A stretch of DNA of 12,377 nt from a virus (taxonomy: Duplodnaviria; Heunggongvirae; Uroviricota; Caudoviricetes), in IMG/VR virus record IMGVR_UViG_3300037307_000441; one strand, given 5' to 3'. Every line of letters begins with the position of its first letter. Within the stretch, counting starts at the first letter, position 1. The notes under the pieces were generated by a model. It was not told the origin of the DNA. It did not search any database and saw nothing but the letters and a program-made list of their open reading frames with translations. A program made the translations under genes and the position numbers. Below, piece by piece: positions 1 to 10,237 of the stretch.

Positions 1-1377
1 TAATCCGCCATATGTATTAGTAGCACACTGACTTCCACTAGCTACCGATAATGTGGCAGTAACTTGTCCAGTTAGATCACCCTGCCATGTAAATCCAACA
101 TTAACAATAGTATTGGAGTTTATTGGGCTATTAGATCCATCTCTTAGTTTTGCCGTAACTTCTATTTGACCACTTCCGTTAGATTGAGCTGACATACAAA
201 GGTCTGCATAAACTTGTAGACTTGTCGTTGTTGTCGTTGTTGTACTTGTCGTTGTTGTTGTCGTCGTTGTCGTCGTCGTTGTCGTCGTTGTCGTCGTCGT
301 TAATGGACAATCCGCAACTAAATTTTGTAGGAACAATCCAGAATTTATATAACTACCTGATGTATATAATAACTCTAAATTCGAAGGAGTTGCGTTGCCA
401 TATGGTGGCATAGAATTTAATATGCTGGTTAGTGATGAAAAACTATTACCATAAACATCAACTCCTAATGCTCCAACAGAACCTTGATTATAATTTACGA
501 CAGTTATCCTTCGTATACCGGCTGATATAGTAACTGGGTAGATATTCCACCACCTAAAAAACTCCGCATTACCGAAGTTAGTTTGACTAAAAGCTGTAAC
601 ACCATCTATAGCTATTTGTCCACCATTATCAAATCCAGTTCCTATATAATATGTTCTAGTGGTGGGTACATTTATTGTAAAATTCAAAAAACCATTACCG
701 ACATATTGAAGTTGTGTAGTTGGGTTAACAGGCACATTGGTAGCATTCCACAATCCAGTTCTATTTAGTCTGCCAGAGGTGGCCCCGGTTGTTATATTAA
801 TCCACCAAGAATTAGACCAAGTTCCAGTATTAACCACCCCGCTATAGGTTGCCGCAATTACAATAGGAGTCCCATCATAATTATATGATGAAAATATCTT
901 AATACCTTGCCATCCATAAGCGGCATTTGCTGAAGCAACTGATTGGCCAGTGATAGCACTGCAACTGCCCCCAACAGAATATGTCGCGTTTACTAAATTT
1001 GATATAGCATACCTTCCATCCCAATTTCTTCTTACACAATAACTATTTCTACCAGAAAAGGTTACTGTAATCAAATTTTTATAATAAGTAACTAAAGTAG
1101 CACTTCCTGTAGCTGCTCCACTTGCAGAGAAACCAACACATCTATAAATAGCTTCTTGACCATAAAAAGCGGACATGCTGAATCCTGCTGTTTGTTTAAC
1201 CCCAGCGGTAGCGACGTTGCCTGGTCTAAAAAAATAAGATAAGGAAAACGTACCAGGTGTTCCAGCTCCACTTGGGCCTGGAATCGGTCCTGCTAAACTA
1301 TGTTGTATACTCATTGTATATCCAACTTCATCAGCTATTAAATCAGTAGAAAGAGGACCAGCAACTGGTAATGGCAT
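1..1377 (-). CDS. Putative virion surface/adhesin (fibre-like) protein with a PA14-like beta-sandwich and a poly-Thr linker; partial, runs off the left edge (at least 459 aa)
   Basis: Not in the ORF track. Hand translation from ATG at 1377 is open for 459 codons to position 1: MPLPVAGPLSTDLIADEVG...GFSMSAFYG...TRTYYIGTGFDNGGQIAIDGVTAFSQTNFGNAEFFRWWNIYPVTISAGIRRITVVNYNQGSVGALGVDVY...CPL-T18-S-T7-S-LQVYADLC... It is G/S/T/N-rich, its N-terminus resembles the M(A/P)LPxSGPxS...(I/F)S(L/M)SxFYG leader common in phage glycine-rich fibre/adhesin proteins, and AATATATAG lies 21 nt upstream. Confidence 0.8.
   Translation of the reverse strand, partial: MPLPVAGPLSTDLIADEVGYTMSIQHSLAGPIPGPSGAGTPGTFSLSYFFRPGNVATAGVKQTAGFSMSAFYGQEAIYRCVGFSASGAATGSATLVTYYKNLITVTFSGRNSYCVRRNWDGRYAISNLVNATYSVGGSCSAITGQSVASANAAYGWQGIKIFSSYNYDGTPIVIAATYSGVVNTGTWSNSWWINITTGATSGRLNRTGLWNATNVPVNPTTQLQYVGNGFLNFTINVPTTRTYYIGTGFDNGGQIAIDGVTAFSQTNFGNAEFFRWWNIYPVTISAGIRRITVVNYNQGSVGALGVDVYGNSFSSLTSILNSMPPYGNATPSNLELLYTSGSYINSGLFLQNLVADCPLTTTTTTTTTTTTTTTTTTSTTTTTTTSLQVYADLCMSAQSNGSGQIEVTAKLRDGSNSPINSNTIVNVGFTWQGDLTGQVTATLSVASGSQCATNTYGGL
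220..300 (-). repeat. (ACG/ACA)n trinucleotide tract encoding T18-S-T7-S
   Basis: Read directly: the plus strand shows gtc/gtt triplet runs; the minus-strand frame gives 25 Thr and 2 Ser. Confidence 0.95.
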
Positions 1378-4186: not shown

Positions 4187-4717
4187 TTATATTTGGTTTC
4201 TCCCAGCTTCGCTTATGTAGACAACTCTACCCTTATCCTCATCATACACCATTATTCTTTTTATCTCATCTATCCACTCTCTTTCAGTTTTATTGTAAAC
4301 TTGTTCTTTAACCTTTTTGATTATATAATCAACATCCTCTCTATTTTTAAAGTTGAATATATTTGATAATTTTAGATATTGAAATCCTGACTCTAAATAT
4401 TTTTCCATAGTGGGCCATTTCTTCATTCTTTTTTCAATCAACCTTAATCTTTTCCTTATCTTGTTTAATTTAGATGGTATTTCAATATCATATTTTATAT
4501 CTTCAAGAATTTCATATTCTGCTTTTTCTACATAATAGTTATCAATAGCGGTGTTGACTAAAAAATCAATTTTTTTATCAGTTGAGAAATTTGCCCAAAT
4601 TGGAGTTACCACAGGGGCCATAATTAATCCAAAAAACATTTGAGCATAGTAGTTAAGATTTCTCTCTTGTCCTATTGATTCATTTACAAAATCATCAAAT
4701 TTATTTATATGTTTCAT
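4187..4717 (-). CDS. Hypothetical protein with a capsid-targeting-like N-terminus (MKHINKFDDFVNES); probable internal head protein
   Basis: 176-aa ORF; the N-terminal peptide resembles T4 IPII/IPIII MKTYQEFIAE; AATATATAC lies 8 nt upstream. Confidence 0.7.
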   Translation of the reverse strand: MKHINKFDDFVNESIGQERNLNYYAQMFFGLIMAPVVTPIWANFSTDKKIDFLVNTAIDNYYVEKAEYEILEDIKYDIEIPSKLNKIRKRLRLIEKRMKKWPTMEKYLESGFQYLKLSNIFNFKNREDVDYIIKKVKEQVYNKTEREWIDEIKRIMVYDEDKGRVVYISEAGRNQI

Positions 4718-4718
4718 A

Positions 4719-5981
4719 CTAATTGTATATATTATTTTTAATAAATGATGAATAATTCATTAAAATAGACTCTCTAACAAGTTGATAACCTTTACCTATT
4801 TTTTGTAATTTTTTTCTATTCTTTTTCAAATCAGATCCAAACTTATTTAAATTAGCTCCTTTTTGGTATATAAGAAAATCAAGTTGAGCATCTGTTAGTT
4901 TTCCATCATTTTTATCAAACTCAGACATAATCAAATTGTAAAAATCATGTCTGTTTAATTTTTCTATACCAAAATGTTTTTTAAAATCCTCAAGATTATT
5001 AAAGACTAAATCATTCATATAAATCAAACCATTTTGAACACTTATTTCTAATTCATCATCTTCATGCCATTTAGTGAAATGATATTTTCTACCAGATTTG
5101 AAGTGATATAAATAATTCTTATAACTTCTAACTTCTTGACAAACATAATATAAGTTATCTAATATAGTAAATACTTCTTGGAATATTTTTTGATCGTTAG
5201 ACAGTTGTATTTCTTCGGTTTCTAATCTAGAATCAATTTGATAATTTCTATCAAGCAATCTAACGGTTGGTAAGTTATCCCATTTTATTTTGATGGCGGC
5301 TTTCGCAACACTTTCAACATATTTAATATCCACATATTCATTTGTGGTGTGTTCATTATAAACCCCTACTGATAGGTTAACAATTTCAGGAATTAAATCT
5401 CCAAAAAATGCCGTATCTGTATAATAACCAGTTCTATCTTTTTGATAATCAATGCCATTTGATTTAAAATCTTCAATTAACTTATCAGCAAATTCATCTG
5501 AACAACAACTTCTTCCAAATTGACGTGTTATTAATTGCCCCTTTTCTTTTCTATCAAATGATACAGCCCTTTTGAATTTTTTAAAAAATTCAGGATTAGA
5601 TTCAATTGCTAATAAAGAACCGTGTGGTAAATCTTTATGAACGGCACCTTCTTCACCTAAGAAAAAATAATAAGTTCCTGGAACAAAATTTTCAATCATA
5701 TAAAACAAAACGCAACACCCTGCTTTATTATCACCCCCCAAAATTGTGGTTCCGTCAGTTTTGATTATATTTCCGTTTATTATATGATTGACTTTTTCTT
5801 TCTTATCGGTTGATACATCTAGGTGTGATGTAAATAAGGTTTCTGAAGTTCCAATTTGATAGTAATAATTACCAACCGAATCTTTTTTCCATCCACTTGG
5901 TAGTAGATGCTCTAGTTCCGATTCGTGTCCAAAAGGTATTGTCCACTCTGTTAATTTTAAAAATGTATCTTTAAAGTTCAT
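4719..5981 (-). CDS. M20/M28-clan zinc metallopeptidase (probable start 5981, MNFKDTF; the track starts at 5993)
   Basis: Full set of clan MH ligands: TSHLD (His), GGDNKAG (Asp), LGEEG (Glu-Glu), SFDR (Asp), NEHTTNE (His). ATG 5981 lies 1 nt after the upstream TAA, the same coupling as at 4717. Confidence 0.85.
   Translation of the reverse strand: MNFKDTFLKLTEWTIPFGHESELEHLLPSGWKKDSVGNYYYQIGTSETLFTSHLDVSTDKKEKVNHIINGNIIKTDGTTILGGDNKAGCCVLFYMIENFVPGTYYFFLGEEGAVHKDLPHGSLLAIESNPEFFKKFKRAVSFDRKEKGQLITRQFGRSCCSDEFADKLIEDFKSNGIDYQKDRTGYYTDTAFFGDLIPEIVNLSVGVYNEHTTNEYVDIKYVESVAKAAIKIKWDNLPTVRLLDRNYQIDSRLETEEIQLSNDQKIFQEVFTILDNLYYVCQEVRSYKNYLYHFKSGRKYHFTKWHEDDELEISVQNGLIYMNDLVFNNLEDFKKHFGIEKLNRHDFYNLIMSEFDKNDGKLTDAQLDFLIYQKGANLNKFGSDLKKNRKKLQKIGKGYQLVRESILMNYSSFIKNNIYN
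4725..4733 (-). promoter_or_regulatory. Putative late promoter AATATATAC embedded in the last codons of the peptidase gene
   Basis: The motif lies within codons N-N-I-Y, 8 nt before ATG 4717. Confidence 0.4.
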
Positions 5982-5982
5982 A

Positions 5983-6216
5983 TTAGTCAACATATATTAA
6001 TACTATATCATCATCAACATCATATTCTTCTCCATTTGTTATACTAATCATAAAATAAGAGGTGCTATCTAAATTAGAATTATAAACAATAACTTTTTTA
6101 TCATCATCGATGTTGGATAAAAGTTTTTTTAAATCACCAACTGTTGTTGGAGCCTCCAACTTTAGCCTAAATTCTTTGTCAATATCTTCTGTAATAATCT
6201 TTGTAAATTTTTTCAT
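5983..6216 (-). CDS. Small acidic hypothetical phage protein with a targeting-like N-terminus (MKKFTKIITE)
   Basis: 77 aa; TVGDLKKLLSNIDDDKKVIV resembles the common phage MTVxELxxxLxxxxxDxxV motif; co-oriented within the cassette. Confidence 0.75.
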   Translation of the reverse strand: MKKFTKIITEDIDKEFRLKLEAPTTVGDLKKLLSNIDDDKKVIVYNSNLDSTSYFMISITNGEEYDVDDDIVLIYVD

Positions 6217-6230
6217 AAATATTTATATTT

Positions 6231-7424
6231 TTAATCATCATCATCATATCCAGCATTGTGGTCATAATCATCTTCATAATCATCATCTTCAGACCACTCT
6301 ATATATGTTGATTCAGGAAAACTTTGATTACTAATTTTCCCAGTATCTGGATTCCATTTATCCATTGTATCAACAGATGGAAATTTTTCCATACCAGTTT
6401 CTTTTAACTGAGCAACATATGTATTATTATAATTATTACCATCATCTATTGCATCCCATTCCATATGTTTTGCATAATCCTTAAATATTTTCACATCAGA
6501 ATCATTACTAACATATATTCTATCCATCATTTTTTTACCATCAACTAAATTCCATACCAGAGCTCTACCAACTATTTTATCAGGATTTTCATCTGATTTT
6601 AATATTAATAACTTTACTGTTTCTGGATTCTTAATGTATATCTCTAACCAGTCTAATCTACCAACCGCTTGACAAGATGATCCTAAACTCCCTTTATGTG
6701 GATGTAAATAGTTTTTTCTGTGATACCAAAAACCTAAATCATCTCCCTCTACAATTTCAAAATTAGAAAAAGCATCATTTATAACTTTAAGAGTTCCCTT
6801 AAAATCATTTACAAATTTTTCTATTTCACTGTCACTTACATTATTAATTCCATTTGCTGATAATAAACTCCTGACTAATCTTCCAATTCTTATTTCTTGT
6901 CTACTTTTGTTAAACACTATTTTATATAATTTATCTTTAGCATCTTTTAACTTTTCATAATTATAGACCCCTTGACCATTTTCAAATTTAACATAACACC
7001 ATGTTTTTCCACTTTTTTCTGACTTAATTTTACTTACAATCTCACCAATTTCTCCACCTTGTGGGTTATATACTTCCTTTGTTGTTGGAACATATCCAAG
7101 TGAATCGAAAATATTTTTATTAGCTTCTACATTATTAGTCAACCATCCACCTCTTCCCCCCTCATAACTAACTACTTCTTTATCTGTCTTTAATACTTCT
7201 TGAGCAACTCTGTCTGGAGTAAAGGTTAAAGATGAATCATCGTCTTTCTTTATACCAATAAAATTAGCAGTTACATTTAGATCTTTATTTTCAATCTCTA
7301 ATAATTTAGAGGCAATTTTATTATCACTCATTTTATTGAGCACTTTTTTAAATTTATCAGAATAAATTACATTAGATTCTAATAAAAGAGATTCAATTAT
7401 AAATTCAGAATAATTAGTTATCAT
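6231..7424 (-). CDS. Conserved phage protein of the SC(M/Q)...GRALxW...MDRIY type (possibly GNAT-like) with a capsid-targeting-like N-terminus and an acidic tail
   Basis: 397 aa; motifs RQEIRIGRLV, GSLGSSCQ, IVGRALVW, MMDRIYV; N-terminus MITNYSEFIIES; C-terminus EDDDYEDDYDHNAGYDDDD. The fold assignment is inference. Confidence 0.75.
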   Translation of the reverse strand: MITNYSEFIIESLLLESNVIYSDKFKKVLNKMSDNKIASKLLEIENKDLNVTANFIGIKKDDDSSLTFTPDRVAQEVLKTDKEVVSYEGGRGGWLTNNVEANKNIFDSLGYVPTTKEVYNPQGGEIGEIVSKIKSEKSGKTWCYVKFENGQGVYNYEKLKDAKDKLYKIVFNKSRQEIRIGRLVRSLLSANGINNVSDSEIEKFVNDFKGTLKVINDAFSNFEIVEGDDLGFWYHRKNYLHPHKGSLGSSCQAVGRLDWLEIYIKNPETVKLLILKSDENPDKIVGRALVWNLVDGKKMMDRIYVSNDSDVKIFKDYAKHMEWDAIDDGNNYNNTYVAQLKETGMEKFPSVDTMDKWNPDTGKISNQSFPESTYIEWSEDDDYEDDYDHNAGYDDDD

Positions 7425-7441
7425 TTAATAAGAAGTATTTT

Positions 7442-7472
7442 TTTGTATATATTAAATTTTTAGTTATATTTG
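7442..7472 (+). promoter_or_regulatory. Bacteroidota sigma-A-type promoter (-33 TTTG, 19 nt, -7 TATATTTG)
   Basis: TTTG at 7442-7445, TATATTTG at 7465-7472; 14 nt before ATG 7487. Confidence 0.8.
7445..7453 (-). promoter_or_regulatory. Putative late promoter AATATATAC
   Basis: The 8-mer ends 21 nt before ATG 7424 and lies in the spacer of the opposite-strand sigma-A promoter. Confidence 0.6.
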
Positions 7473-7486
7473 TAGAAAGTGTATAT

Positions 7487-8101
7487 ATGATACCTACTTT
7501 AGATTCAATTATTAAAATATCTGGAATACATCCCTCAAGGGTATTTAATGTATACCTATTTGGTTCAAGGGTTTATGGAACTTCTGATCTCAACTCGGAT
7601 TGGGATGTTATTATGATTGCAAATAATCATGCCGAATCAACTGAAATTCGTAGAGGTATTTTTAATATTCATGTTTATACCCCGGATAAATTTAGAAAAG
7701 ATTTAGATTGGCATCGCATCAATAATTTGGAATGTATTTATGCCCCTGATTGGGCTAAGCTTAAAGAAGCCATAAAATTCGACGACTTCAAGATTCATAA
7801 AAATAAATTACGACACGCTATTTCTCACATTAGTTCAAATTCTTGGGTTAAGTGTAGAAAAAAAATGGAGGTCGAAAATGAATATTATATTGGTATTAAG
7901 TCACTATTTCATTCAATTAGAATTCCTATGTTTGCTACACAAATAGTAGAATTTGGAAAGATAAGGGATTTTGAGTGTGCGAATTTTGTGTGGGATAAAT
8001 TAAAGAAAAATCATTTGACATGGGGAGAGTTGGATAGAGAATTTAGACCATTATTAAATTCGACTATGACACAATTCAGAAAATTAGTACCAAAAATTTA
8101 A
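7487..8101 (+). CDS. Pol-beta-superfamily nucleotidyltransferase, RlaP-like
   Basis: YLFGSRVYGTSDLNSDWDV (GS...DxD); NIHVYTPDKF...NNLECIYAP and KSLFHSIRI...IVEFGKI follow the RlaP/PF10127-type pattern. Confidence 0.75.
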   Translation: MIPTLDSIIKISGIHPSRVFNVYLFGSRVYGTSDLNSDWDVIMIANNHAESTEIRRGIFNIHVYTPDKFRKDLDWHRINNLECIYAPDWAKLKEAIKFDDFKIHKNKLRHAISHISSNSWVKCRKKMEVENEYYIGIKSLFHSIRIPMFATQIVEFGKIRDFECANFVWDKLKKNHLTWGELDREFRPLLNSTMTQFRKLVPKI

Positions 8102-8104
8102 TAT

Positions 8105-8887
8105 ATGAGAAATAATTCAAATAATTATCATTTTGGTCGTCATGTATTTGATTATTTTCCATGGAATAAATATAATAATGAGAATATTTATTCTGATCCG
8201 GTTGTAAATATGGAGATACATAGAGATTTCAAATTTGCTTTTTCTGACGAGTTTTCTCCGGCTTCATTTTTTTGGTATGATAATTCAGTGACGATAAGTA
8301 AATTATCTAATATATTTAATGATGATAGTAGAATATACCGTGGTCCAAATAATATAATAACCTACCGAGGAATAAGTGAAACTGCCTATACTTGGGAAGA
8401 TATTGAAAAAATTAGGTTAAGATGTATATTTGGTGTTGAAGATGTGGCAAATAGATATATGAAAATTATTGATCTTTATACTAAAAATAGATATTTGATA
8501 TTAGATGCACTCTATTTAGATTCTGGTGAAGAAGAGATAGAAACACCACTCATTAGTTTATCAGATATAGTAAATAGGGAGCAAGAAGAACTGTGTATGG
8601 AATTTATATCAGAGAGTGATGTATATGAATCTATTAATAAAAGAAATTATAAAAGAAACAAATTCACCGACTCTATTAGTGAATTCTTTAGAACTCGTGG
8701 ATATTTAACTGAAAAACAAGTAAGCGCATTTGCTAAGACATCTTATAAAGAAATTCTATCTAATAAAGACATGGTTTTTTTTAGTATAAAGACAAACAAA
8801 CTAAGAAATATTGATAGAATGATTAAATATTTTGAATCAATCGAATTAACTTGTAAAAAAACAAATAATTTATTATTAATTTACTAA
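8105..8887 (+). CDS. Hypothetical protein
   Basis: 260-aa ORF, 3 nt after the upstream stop; its C-terminal FTDSISEFFRTRGYLTEKQ resembles a recurrent phage FxxSI...GxL(S/T)xKQ motif. Confidence 0.75.
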   Translation: MRNNSNNYHFGRHVFDYFPWNKYNNENIYSDPVVNMEIHRDFKFAFSDEFSPASFFWYDNSVTISKLSNIFNDDSRIYRGPNNIITYRGISETAYTWEDIEKIRLRCIFGVEDVANRYMKIIDLYTKNRYLILDALYLDSGEEEIETPLISLSDIVNREQEELCMEFISESDVYESINKRNYKRNKFTDSISEFFRTRGYLTEKQVSAFAKTSYKEILSNKDMVFFSIKTNKLRNIDRMIKYFESIELTCKKTNNLLLIY

Positions 8888-8898
8888 TTTATAATTTT

Positions 8899-9129
8899 AT
8901 GTTCTTCAATAAAAAGCAAAGAAATAAAGAAACAGATTCACTTATCAATGAATATAAAAATATTCAAGGAAGTATAGATTTTTTAGAAAATGAAGTATCC
9001 AATTATATCATAAAATCTTTAAAGGAAGATGTTGCTCAATATATCAATAATTTAAAATCTGGTTCAACTGCACATAAAAATGTCTATTGGTATATAGAAA
9101 AGGAGTTAGAGCAAATGAGTTTATATTAA
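8899..9129 (+). CDS. Hypothetical protein (76 aa), possibly the 5' half of a frameshifted gene
   Basis: ATG start with operon-like spacing; overlaps the next open frame by 43 nt. Confidence 0.6.
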   Translation: MFFNKKQRNKETDSLINEYKNIQGSIDFLENEVSNYIIKSLKEDVAQYINNLKSGSTAHKNVYWYIEKELEQMSLY

Positions 9130-9401
9130 AAAAGAATATTAGATTAGAAATCAATATTATGACCAATGGTTTTTTTGATGAAAAATTTGAAATAAATGAA
9201 ATCAAAATGATTAACCCAAGACATATGAATATAAAAATAACTAAAGAAATAAAAGATATAATATTCAAATATGTAATGGAATTTAAAATAAGTAGTCTAA
9301 ATTCTAAATTAGAAGAAACTAAGAATGCATTCGCTTCGATAGAAAATTTGGTTGGTAAATCAGTAGTCAGAGATTCAAAAATTGATAATATATTTAAATA
9401 A
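9087..9401 (+). CDS. Hypothetical protein with a C-terminal RDSKIDNI motif (start uncertain: TTG 9087 or ATG 9159)
   Basis: Open frame ending VVRDSKIDNIFK; the same octapeptide occurs in the 10232..10555 product. Confidence 0.65.
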   Translation: MVYRKGVRANEFILKKNIRLEINIMTNGFFDEKFEINEIKMINPRHMNIKITKEIKDIIFKYVMEFKISSLNSKLEETKNAFASIENLVGKSVVRDSKIDNIFK

Positions 9402-9404
9402 AAT

Positions 9405-9413
9405 AATATATAG
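9405..9413 (+). promoter_or_regulatory. Putative late promoter AATATATAG
   Basis: In the 32-nt intergenic gap; the 8-mer ends 21 nt before ATG 9434. Confidence 0.6.
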
Positions 9414-9433
9414 ATAAAACTATACTATTTTTA

Positions 9434-10237
9434 ATGGCATTAATTAAAAAATTCGAATCACTATCAATTGACACAACTATAGAACACTGTAAAGACGTTA
9501 TTGAGACTTTATCTGATTTCGAAGATGATGTTGAAATTAAAAATTATGCCATAGGATATATATATTCGGATAGGGTAGAACAAAATCCAACAACAGAAAG
9601 GGATAAAAAAGGTATAAAATTTAATTTATTCTTAAAGAAAGAATTCAAATCAATAACAGGTAAAGAATCTTTTGATGATCAAATATTTTTACTACAAAAA
9701 TCTAAATACCTTTACTCTAAAATACGTAGTTACTGTGATGAAATAAAAATAGATGTAAGAACAGGATACGTTACATTTATTTTACAATTTGAAAATACTG
9801 ATGAATCAATAAAAAATAAAGCTAAATTAAATAGGGTTTATAAAGGATTGGGAGAAGCTCTTAAGGATTATGATAGGTTTAAAACTATTTATCTATCATC
9901 TGAAGAGCAATTAACTAAAGCTAATAATGATTATTATAAAGATTGTTTAAATATATTAAGATCAATTAATAAAGGTTTAGAAAAGAAAAAGGAATTCACA
10001 CATTTCAGATTTTCAGTTGATATGTCAGAGGAAAATGGTATTATTACTTTAAAACCAAAGCAATTCAGGTATAAAGATGGTTATAGTTGGAAGACAGTAA
10101 GATATAATTCTGAGTTGGCAAAAAATGTTGTTAGATGTTTACAACATAACTTAGAATCAGGGTATATCTATAATGTTAGTCGTGGTGATATAAAGTATGA
10201 GGAAAAAGATACCGAACTAAAGATTATAATATTATAA
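9434..10237 (+). CDS. Hypothetical protein with a MALIKKFES leader; possible internal head protein
   Basis: 267-aa ORF with its own AATATATAG motif and a short (I/L)KKFES leader. Confidence 0.75.
   Translation: MALIKKFESLSIDTTIEHCKDVIETLSDFEDDVEIKNYAIGYIYSDRVEQNPTTERDKKGIKFNLFLKKEFKSITGKESFDDQIFLLQKSKYLYSKIRSYCDEIKIDVRTGYVTFILQFENTDESIKNKAKLNRVYKGLGEALKDYDRFKTIYLSSEEQLTKANNDYYKDCLNILRSINKGLEKKKEFTHFRFSVDMSEENGIITLKPKQFRYKDGYSWKTVRYNSELAKNVVRCLQHNLESGYIYNVSRGDIKYEEKDTELKIIIL

Follow-up and report, generated by a model that had tools for sequence, protein, structure and literature searches.

The capsid-targeting sequence (CTS) of phage T4, MKTYQEFIAE, comprises the first ten residues of internal protein (IP) IPIII and is enough for packaging (PMC8442874); within it, residues 4 and 7 serve targeting while residues 8 and 10 serve processing (PMC9026906). 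The T4 scaffold is cleaved at many Glu sites (PMC8442874, PMC9026906, PMC3012670, PMC5694885), and it is established that the T-even phages carry diverse cargo with only the CTS in common (PMC3012670). In phiKZ-like phages, many head-internal proteins (substrates of phiKZ gp175 and SPN3US gp245) are loaded via N-terminal propeptides that are cut after Glu (PMC5694885, PMC9026906). Here we describe a family of short N-terminal leaders, which we call the tag, encoded in a 12,377-nucleotide stretch of viral DNA (IMG/VR record IMGVR_UViG_3300037307_000441; the whole stretch is called the window, and positions are counted from its first letter) and in the genomes of large phages related to it. On the sequence evidence the tag is real, N-terminally anchored, portable between proteins, specific to one clade and linked to late promoters, and we put at about 50% the probability that it is a T4-type capsid-targeting propeptide. 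The CTS concept and the diversity of CTS-bearing cargo in T-even phages are already known. What appears different here is a two-type tag, belonging to a clade of the largest phages and carried by more than 100 proteins per genome, RNA-repair and nucleotide-degrading enzymes among them, together with its likeness to a scaffold repeat and the pairing of tagged-late with untagged-early paralogs. A literature search, which was not exhaustive, found no description of such a tag in huge phages.

The tag resembles the T4 CTS in occupying about ten residues at the extreme N-terminus, in its order of residues (an aromatic, Phe three positions on, then Ile or Leu, any residue, and Glu), in preceding unrelated cargo, in its link to late expression, and in the company of a T4-type portal/protease/capsid module. 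In T4 itself, a Glu-to-Asp change prevents processing while targeting continues. The tag differs from the T4 CTS in being shifted by at least one residue, in the F-N-E-S ending of its commoner sub-type, in its presence on over 100 proteins (about 12% of ORFs) where T4 has a handful, in having acidic cargo, in a protease that is fused to the scaffold, and in being known here from sequence alone. Because only the type of tag is shared, with no sequence relation and no basic character, the tagged proteins are not filed as homologs of the T4 IPs. The propeptides of T4 gp24 and gp23 and the sites in gp22, all cut after Glu, offer a second likeness: they too have a short hydrophobic-x-Glu form and many sites in the scaffold, comparable to the 11-14 repeats bearing the leader motif in the scaffold described below, although here capsid protein and portal have no tag at their N-termini and the cut sites are predicted ones. 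The propeptides of phiKZ-like phages share a gp21-related protease and redundant sites within the propeptide, but mostly exceed 100 residues and have no short consensus, whereas the tag is 9-14 residues long in the window and recognisable across more than 100 proteins. Encapsulin cargo-loading peptides are likewise short and portable, and send unrelated enzymes into the interior of an HK97-fold shell; they are mostly C-terminal, remain uncleaved, bind the shell protein, and have no sequence similarity to the tag.

Megablast of the window against deposited phage records returned no close DNA match. The best relatives of its proteins are encoded by the 'uncultured phage' genomes LR745206 (635 kb) and LR756501-4 (635-735 kb for the whole group), by the IMG/VR contigs L001-L006 and by L047, a syntenic contig of 22 kb. 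Public runs that contain window DNA are freshwater DNA metagenomes only, none of them an RNA run, and, judged by capsid protein, the closest phage in culture is Tenacibaculum phage PTm1 (29% identity). The window is very AT-rich (22-39% GC, with 28% also given).

An initial annotation placed leaders of T4 type at the starts of four open reading frames (ORFs) in the window, and all four ORFs begin there with the N-termini that it listed:

7389..7424, minus strand: leader MITNYSEFIIES of a 397-residue protein; type B, Y5..F8-I9-x-E11-S, spaced as in the T4 CTS with a one-residue shift
4676..4717, minus strand: leader MKHINKFDDFVNES of a 176-residue protein; a type A prefix with an F7..F10-V11-x-E13-S end
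9434..9460, plus strand: leader MALIKKFES of a 267-residue protein; type A, I4-K-K-F7-E-S
6187..6216, minus strand: leader MKKFTKIITE of a 77-residue protein; doubtful and degenerate, the weakest of the four

The shared motif proposed for them, (K/N)(Y/F)xx(F/I)(I/V)xE, fits the leaders at 7424, 4717 and 6216. It fails for MALIKKFES, which matches the main consensus of the family, M-K-x-[IL]-[KR]-[KR]-[FY]-[NE]-E-[SF]. Two sub-types are distinguished: the commoner type A has a hydrophobic [IL] at position 4, an aromatic [FY] at position 7 and an F-N-E-S end, and type B has the form aromatic..F-[IL]-x-E. The proposed motif describes one of these sub-types, and does not extend to the other.

The related genome LR745206, which is independent of the window, was taken whole (921 non-overlapping ORFs called) and used to train a position weight matrix, which converged on [LI][KR][KRT][FY][EN]E[F/S]..E and was applied with an 8-bit threshold. 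The tag stands on 114 of the 921 ORFs (~12%). Matrix matches at an offset of 3 from Met1, that is from residue 4, occur in 62 ORFs (6.7%), compared with 0.03-0.06% at internal positions, an enrichment of ~100-200x. In an independent test set of 150 ORFs, made up of the window and IMG/VR loci outside the matrix training, N-terminal matches number 19 against ~0.5 expected. A genome-wide search for the leader had been suggested at the outset, and the motif of the initial annotation, defined as a regular expression on the window only, gave 12 N-terminal matches in LR745206 against 0.11 expected from its internal frequency, while the T4-spacing expression [FYW]xxF[ILV]xE gave 19 against 0.83. LR756504, LR756501 and the IMG/VR relatives carry the tag on 5-27% of sampled ORFs, and related contigs are rich in N-termini such as MKHIRKFNES, MKYLKIFENF, MIIKKFNES and MLLKYNDFIFES. 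Among phages of similar GC content the tag was found in none of 61 ORFs of PTm1 (50 kb examined) and none of 45 of Lak-B5, and it is nearly absent from Cellulophaga phage phi38:1 (1 of 77) and from the 462-kb genome LR756500 (1 of 38).

The conserved tag positions use synonymous codons at genome-wide proportions, with no excess of A or U, and substitutions there stay within amino-acid classes while crossing codon families (TTA/CTA/CTT/TTG with ATT/ATA; TTT/TTC with TAT/TAC/TGG; AAA/AAG with AGA). From this codon usage we conclude that selection is on the peptide, not on the codons. Two candidate explanations were rejected in the course of the analysis: a compositional artefact was ruled out by the N-terminal versus internal enrichment and the scarcity of the tag in equally AT-rich phages, and selection at the nucleotide level by the genome-average use of synonymous codons.

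Scored with the same matrix, the window leaders are of unequal standing: judged by these scores and by their orthologs, two are strong members (9434, 4717), one is backed via orthologs (7424) and one is doubtful (6216). The leaders at 9434 and 4717 score 13.5 and 11.3 bits, both above the threshold, and the one at 4717 also matches the T4-spacing expression. That at 7424 scores 3.4, its 68%-identical ortholog 12.5, and it matches the T4-spacing expression. The leader at 6216 scores -13 and has only the T4-like spacing F4..I7-I8-x-E10 in common with the others. Orthologs of the 267-residue protein (37-47% identity) start MALIKKFES, MAFIKKFES and MALIKRFES, with M1, A2, I4, K5, F7, E8 and S9 invariant; the L047 ortholog of the 176-residue protein begins MKHLNTYDTFINEK; and orthologs of the 77-residue protein, in which the leader is less clearly kept, begin MEKFSKLES and MKKFSHIKEN, where F4 is retained, position 7 is hydrophobic and a Glu stands at 8-10.

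The link to late transcription was also claimed at the outset, namely that all four leaders lie in units associated with the motif AATATATAS and none in a sigma-A-type unit. Both statements hold in the window. The motif precedes 7424 and 9434 (by 20-21 nt) and 4717, and 6216 lies inside the 7424 operon; the three units led by TAnnTTTG (starts 1478, 7487 and 10926) are without a tagged gene. The motifs in front of the tagged genes are:

7445..7453, minus strand: late-type promoter motif AATATATAC, 20 nt upstream of the 7424 start
4725..4733, minus strand: motif AATATATAC of the 'near' class, 7-8 nt upstream of the 4717 start (6 nt in L047)
9405..9413, plus strand: motif AATATATAG, 20 nt upstream of the 9434 start (21 nt in the L047 ortholog)

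AATATATAS stands also before a tail-fibre-like gene of the window and before a unit with a capsid mini-copy. The portal and protease-scaffold genes of LR745206 are preceded by AATATATA, as are many very large ORFs; the capsid and sheath genes belong to units with this motif at their head, and a baseplate wedge gene is in such a unit as well. The TAnnTTTG units of that genome encode an elongation factor, an NAD-dependent DNA ligase, a nicotinamide phosphoribosyltransferase and an HNH endonuclease. The leader is not equally common in the two kinds of unit there: the ratio of AATATATA to TAnnTTTG units is 86:10 for tagged and 263:296 for untagged genes (odds ratio 9.7, P 5e-16). The TAnnTTTG expression is a loose one, and on inspection the 10 tagged exceptions are mostly chance matches inside coding sequence. 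With a strict two-box host-type promoter, which occurs before 24 genes genome-wide, none of the 114 tagged genes is matched. The spacing between AATATATA and the start codon has a bimodal distribution: 81 sites form a sharp peak at 4-6 nt, and a second, broad peak spans 16-29 nt. Taken at face value, genes of the near class would have late mRNAs with no leader or almost none, or else the motif would have a dual role, in translation as well.

The same association appears within a single protein family, that of the 397-residue window protein:

6231..7424, minus strand: gene of the 397-residue cargo protein; very large paralog family, with a weak SH3-like middle and a weak GNAT-like C-terminal domain
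7374..7388, minus strand: second junction motif LLLES of that protein, directly before the folded domain; candidate maturation site of the form (L/I)-(L/N)-E-S, to be cut between E and S

At E<=1e-3 the family comprises at least 2661 representative clusters (50% identity) in metagenomes, with ~8 paralogs per genome. A typical member consists of the leader, a spacer of variable length, LLLES or L-I-N-E-S, and then the anchor (I/V)xYSxxF; the strict leader pattern is found in 62 of the 120 best matches carrying the anchor motif. At the LLLES junction, which swaps with L-I-N-E-S in homologs, the family alignment shows conservation of at least 90% for E16 and S17. AlphaFold2 models the 397-residue protein with a predicted local distance difference test (pLDDT) score of 90.9 from a 66-sequence alignment, the leader forming a separate helix (residues 5-12, pLDDT ~70) and the confident fold beginning at about residue 18, directly after LLLES. 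The protein has no Pfam family, a PDB sequence search with the family profile gave no match, and structure searches with the model (Foldseek, VIA, AFDB) returned GNAT-like matches at Z ~6 and SH3-like ones at Z ~5-6; because these are weak, no firm function can be assigned. Residues G181, Y234, S250-C251, Y263, R287, W291, Y304, P349 and D352 are invariant in the family. Seven copies carry both the tag and AATATATA (LR745206 90898, 475547 and 140677; L004 9923; L001 10001; window 7424; and the one in the L047 operon). Four untagged copies have TAnnTTTG and start at the junction (LR745206 603271 and 531413; L004 6049; L001 7750). No family copy among those compared shows the opposite pairing of tag and promoter, and the tag and the late promoter are thus linked with the protein family held constant.

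The relatives encode a head module of T4 type whose genes follow the T4 order (portal, protease-scaffold, capsid); it lies outside the 12-kb window. The portal matches PF07230 (E 4e-58) and the major capsid protein PF07068 (E 7e-26); the protease matches the head maturation protease family phrog_207 (E 2.7e-31) and is fused in one ORF with a repeat scaffold. In LR745206 this protease-scaffold ORF (707 residues) contains 11 fourteen-residue repeats, NIxYSEY[LI]AENLDK, each with the pattern Y-x-E-Y-[IL]-A-E (11 against 0.19 expected, P 2e-16). This is the type B leader pattern and is close to the T4 CTS core YQEFIAE. The same ORF has 4 hydrophobic-N-E-S sites against 0.1 expected, N-E-S being the type A leader end; one of them lies where protease and scaffold meet, another where the repeats end. 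The corresponding ORF of LR756501 has 14 repeats and 4 NES sites, and these repeats occur in the L003 scaffold too. In LR756500, a genome with few leaders, the scaffold repeats are degenerate. In the leaders themselves, the residue after Glu is Ser in 50 of 112 and Asn in 16 of 112. The capsid, portal and sheath genes of LR745206 are without the tag. A complex prediction of the L003 scaffold repeats (2 copies) with residues 1-60 of the 397-residue protein's ortholog in L003 scored 0.00, which weighs neither way.

Some further features of the protease-scaffold ORFs may be recorded here. They lie at 198546-200669 in LR745206, 19277-20980 in L003 and 17487-19910 in L046; the 11-14 near-perfect scaffold repeats are followed by a very acidic stretch; and the protease N-terminus (MKPVLIIE..SLIRE) has two (I/L)-x-E motifs, like LIE-9 of T4 gp21 (PMC9026906).

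The proteins behind the tag are diverse. BLAST clustering after removal of the first 16 residues divides the 114 tagged LR745206 proteins into 107 clusters, and known domains start after the tag: Rnl1 RNA ligase, a 2H-phosphoesterase (weak Acb1-like match) with an RNase T exonuclease, a CCA/poly(A) polymerase-type nucleotidyltransferase, DHH, NUDIX and NFACT-R. One copy each of the 114 proteins would amount to ~2.5 MDa (22,739 residues). SPN3US packs more than 40 MDa of ejection proteins (PMC7411985), and on that figure head capacity would be no obstacle in principle. Directly downstream of the major capsid gene lies a conserved gene for a small tagged protein with an NFACT-R RNA-binding domain, PF05670 at E 1.5e-16 (LR745206 202508-202897, which is L019:2508-2894; L003 17040-17435).

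We propose, at roughly even odds, that the leaders are T4-type capsid-targeting propeptides which mimic the scaffold repeat, dock into the core and are cut after Glu. On this proposal the tagged proteins would be made late in infection alongside the head proteins, each with a short amphipathic N-terminal helix in which hydrophobic or aromatic residues three apart are followed by (F/I/L)-x-Glu. The leader would imitate one scaffold repeat unit and thereby dock its protein into the prohead scaffolding core, where the T4-type, scaffold-fused prohead protease would cut after Glu, mostly before Ser or Asn; the mature protein, freed inside the head, would accompany the DNA into the next host cell. 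Docking, cleavage, virion retention and injection are steps that we infer. The CTS reading goes back to the initial annotation, and each of its sequence-level predictions that was tested is borne out: the N-terminal anchor, portability, hydrophobic or aromatic residues at the T4 targeting positions with an end like the cut site, (I/L/F)-x-Glu, the late promoter, the head module of the relatives and the scaffold motifs. Its drawbacks are that the cargo is mostly acidic, that the tagged set in the relatives goes well past any CTS set known, and that the motif first proposed covers one of the two sub-types. More tentatively, and with odds clearly below even, the largest known phages (a clade of 630-735 kb, together with relatives from freshwater) may use one scaffold-mimic propeptide to load more than 100 mostly acidic proteins, including RNA-repair and nucleotide-degrading enzymes, with some families keeping an untagged early copy under a host-type promoter and a tagged late copy for the next cell.

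This proposal must be tempered by several observations that weigh against it. All phages carrying the tag are uncultured. The type A end, F-N-E-S, is not the (I/L)-x-E of T4. The tagged proteins are acidic (median isoelectric point 4.75, 74% below 5.5), whereas T4 internal proteins are small, DNA-associated and highly basic. At ~12% of ORFs, the tag is far more frequent than the few T4 CTS proteins or the ~50 head proteins of SPN3US (PMC7411985). The Pfam model of the T4 protease, PF03420, reaches 20 bits, below threshold, and a PDB sequence search with the protease domain gave matches at chance level, none of them to T4 gp21. The phi38:1 homolog of the 397-residue protein, gp037, is untagged, lies in the replication arm beside an M20 peptidase and is not annotated as structural. 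Finally, ~20-25 type A proteins of LR745206 and the 267-residue window protein share a second motif, (I/L)xDxFxEL(K/S)DxGF(x)(I/V), at residues 18-40; these proteins are probably distant paralogs, and part of the tag family would accordingly be related by descent.

Several of these observations would suit a tag that acts late but outside head packaging, as an N-terminal address or handling signal for another late assembly, for a phage chaperone or for stability, its bearers working in the producing cell. Any tag specific to the late phase would be consistent with the data on position, portability and late promoters; the cargo proteins are very many, and acidic; and RNA ligase, the CCA-type enzyme and NUDIX are cytoplasmic enzymes in other phages. 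Such a tag leaves unexplained the match to the T4 CTS at four functionally mapped positions, the concentration of both end motifs in the protease-scaffold protein, and the existence of untagged-early and tagged-late copies of one enzyme family, and we consider it unlikely, if deserving of attention. That the tagged proteins are diverged members of one or a few paralog superfamilies, with a first helix that is structural and has no targeting role, is improbable. The second motif (..D-x-F-x-E-L-x-D-x-G-F..) in ~20-25 type A proteins, the 267-residue window protein included, and the retention of the leader across thousands of members of the 397-residue family argue for common descent, but the tag precedes unrelated folds (Rnl1, 2H, NUDIX, nucleotidyltransferase, NFACT-R) and lies outside the Pfam domains, its bearers fall into 107 BLAST clusters, it is of low confidence and without packing contacts in the models, and leaderless paralogs begin exactly at the junction.

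A signal in the mRNA, with transcripts starting at or near the ATG and the first ten codons acting as a ribosome-loading or promoter-escape sequence of which the peptide is a by-product, is suggested by the sharp 4-6 nt AATATATA-ATG peak, at which tagged genes are ~4-fold enriched. Against it stand the genome-average synonymous codons of the tag and its conservation by amino-acid class, its enrichment also on genes with a 20-nt leader, its absence from the capsid, portal and sheath genes, and the occurrence of the same peptide motifs internally in the scaffold; we hold such a signal to be very improbable. Still less can be said for chance likeness among the N-termini of a genome rich in K, N, I, F, Y and E. 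At 28% GC every leader residue has AT-rich codons, yet the N-terminal over internal enrichment within the same proteome is at least 100-fold and equally AT-rich phages are without the tag, and we regard chance as scarcely credible.

If the leaders are indeed T4-type propeptides, the packaged and injected proteome of uncultured huge phages would be predictable from genome sequence, and would exceed that of any studied phage by an order of magnitude. Many 'hypothetical late proteins' would then be first-strike effectors against host defences, the tagged-late and untagged-early paralog pairs would represent a new regulatory logic, and the tag would be a new loading signal for phage-capsid engineering. 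A ten-residue tag with a defined cut site and mimicry of a scaffold repeat would moreover make a testable model of T4 CTS action.

The remaining genes of the window that bear on the tag are as follows:

5983..6216, minus strand: 77-residue protein gene, 69-70% identity in three relatives, no known family, within the 7424 operon
4719..5993, minus strand: leaderless peptidase of M20/M28/M42 type, from the same late operon (phrog_4191, E 1.4e-49)
4187..4717, minus strand: gene of the 176-residue cargo protein, an orphan with one ortholog (185 residues) in L047
9434..10237, plus strand: gene of the 267-residue cargo protein, with the second motif ..DVIETLSDFEDDVEI.. at residues 21-35 (window 9494-9538)

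Pfam and PHROGs gave nothing for the 176-, 77-, 267- and 397-residue window proteins. A database search with the 176-residue protein returned only itself, and an exact-protein look-up of the 267-residue product found nothing on record. AlphaFold2, given a shallow alignment of the 267-residue protein, places residues 1-13 at pLDDT <50, detached from the fold. Gene order in L047 (10001-13286) compared with the window (4187-7424) is reversed for one pair, the 77-residue gene standing before a 398-residue gene; AATATATA is found in front of the 77-residue gene, and the promoter thus remains at the operon head.

The window peptidase has a weak PF05343 match and a weight-matrix score of -16. Its C-terminus (window 4737-4772, minus strand) reads ..RESILMNYSSFIKNNIYN, in which NYSSFI resembles the NYSEFI of the adjoining leader. 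There are 5 paralogs of the peptidase in LR745206, one of which follows closely on the capsid gene within the head module (202934-204292, which is L019:2934-4289; phrog_4191, E 7e-65), with a counterpart in L003 at 15656-17014. Peptidases of this type may clear propeptide or scaffold fragments. Cellulophaga phage phi38:1 has the same pairing, of peptidase gp038 with the 397-family protein gp037.

Otherwise the window encodes two nucleotidyltransferases, a Tpt1/KptA RNA 2'-phosphotransferase, many orphans and a Thr-rich tail-fibre-like protein. The ORF of the last (window 1-1377, minus strand) is truncated by the window edge, has a stretch of ~27 threonines and one serine, and is driven by a AATATATAG motif 20 nt upstream of its start.

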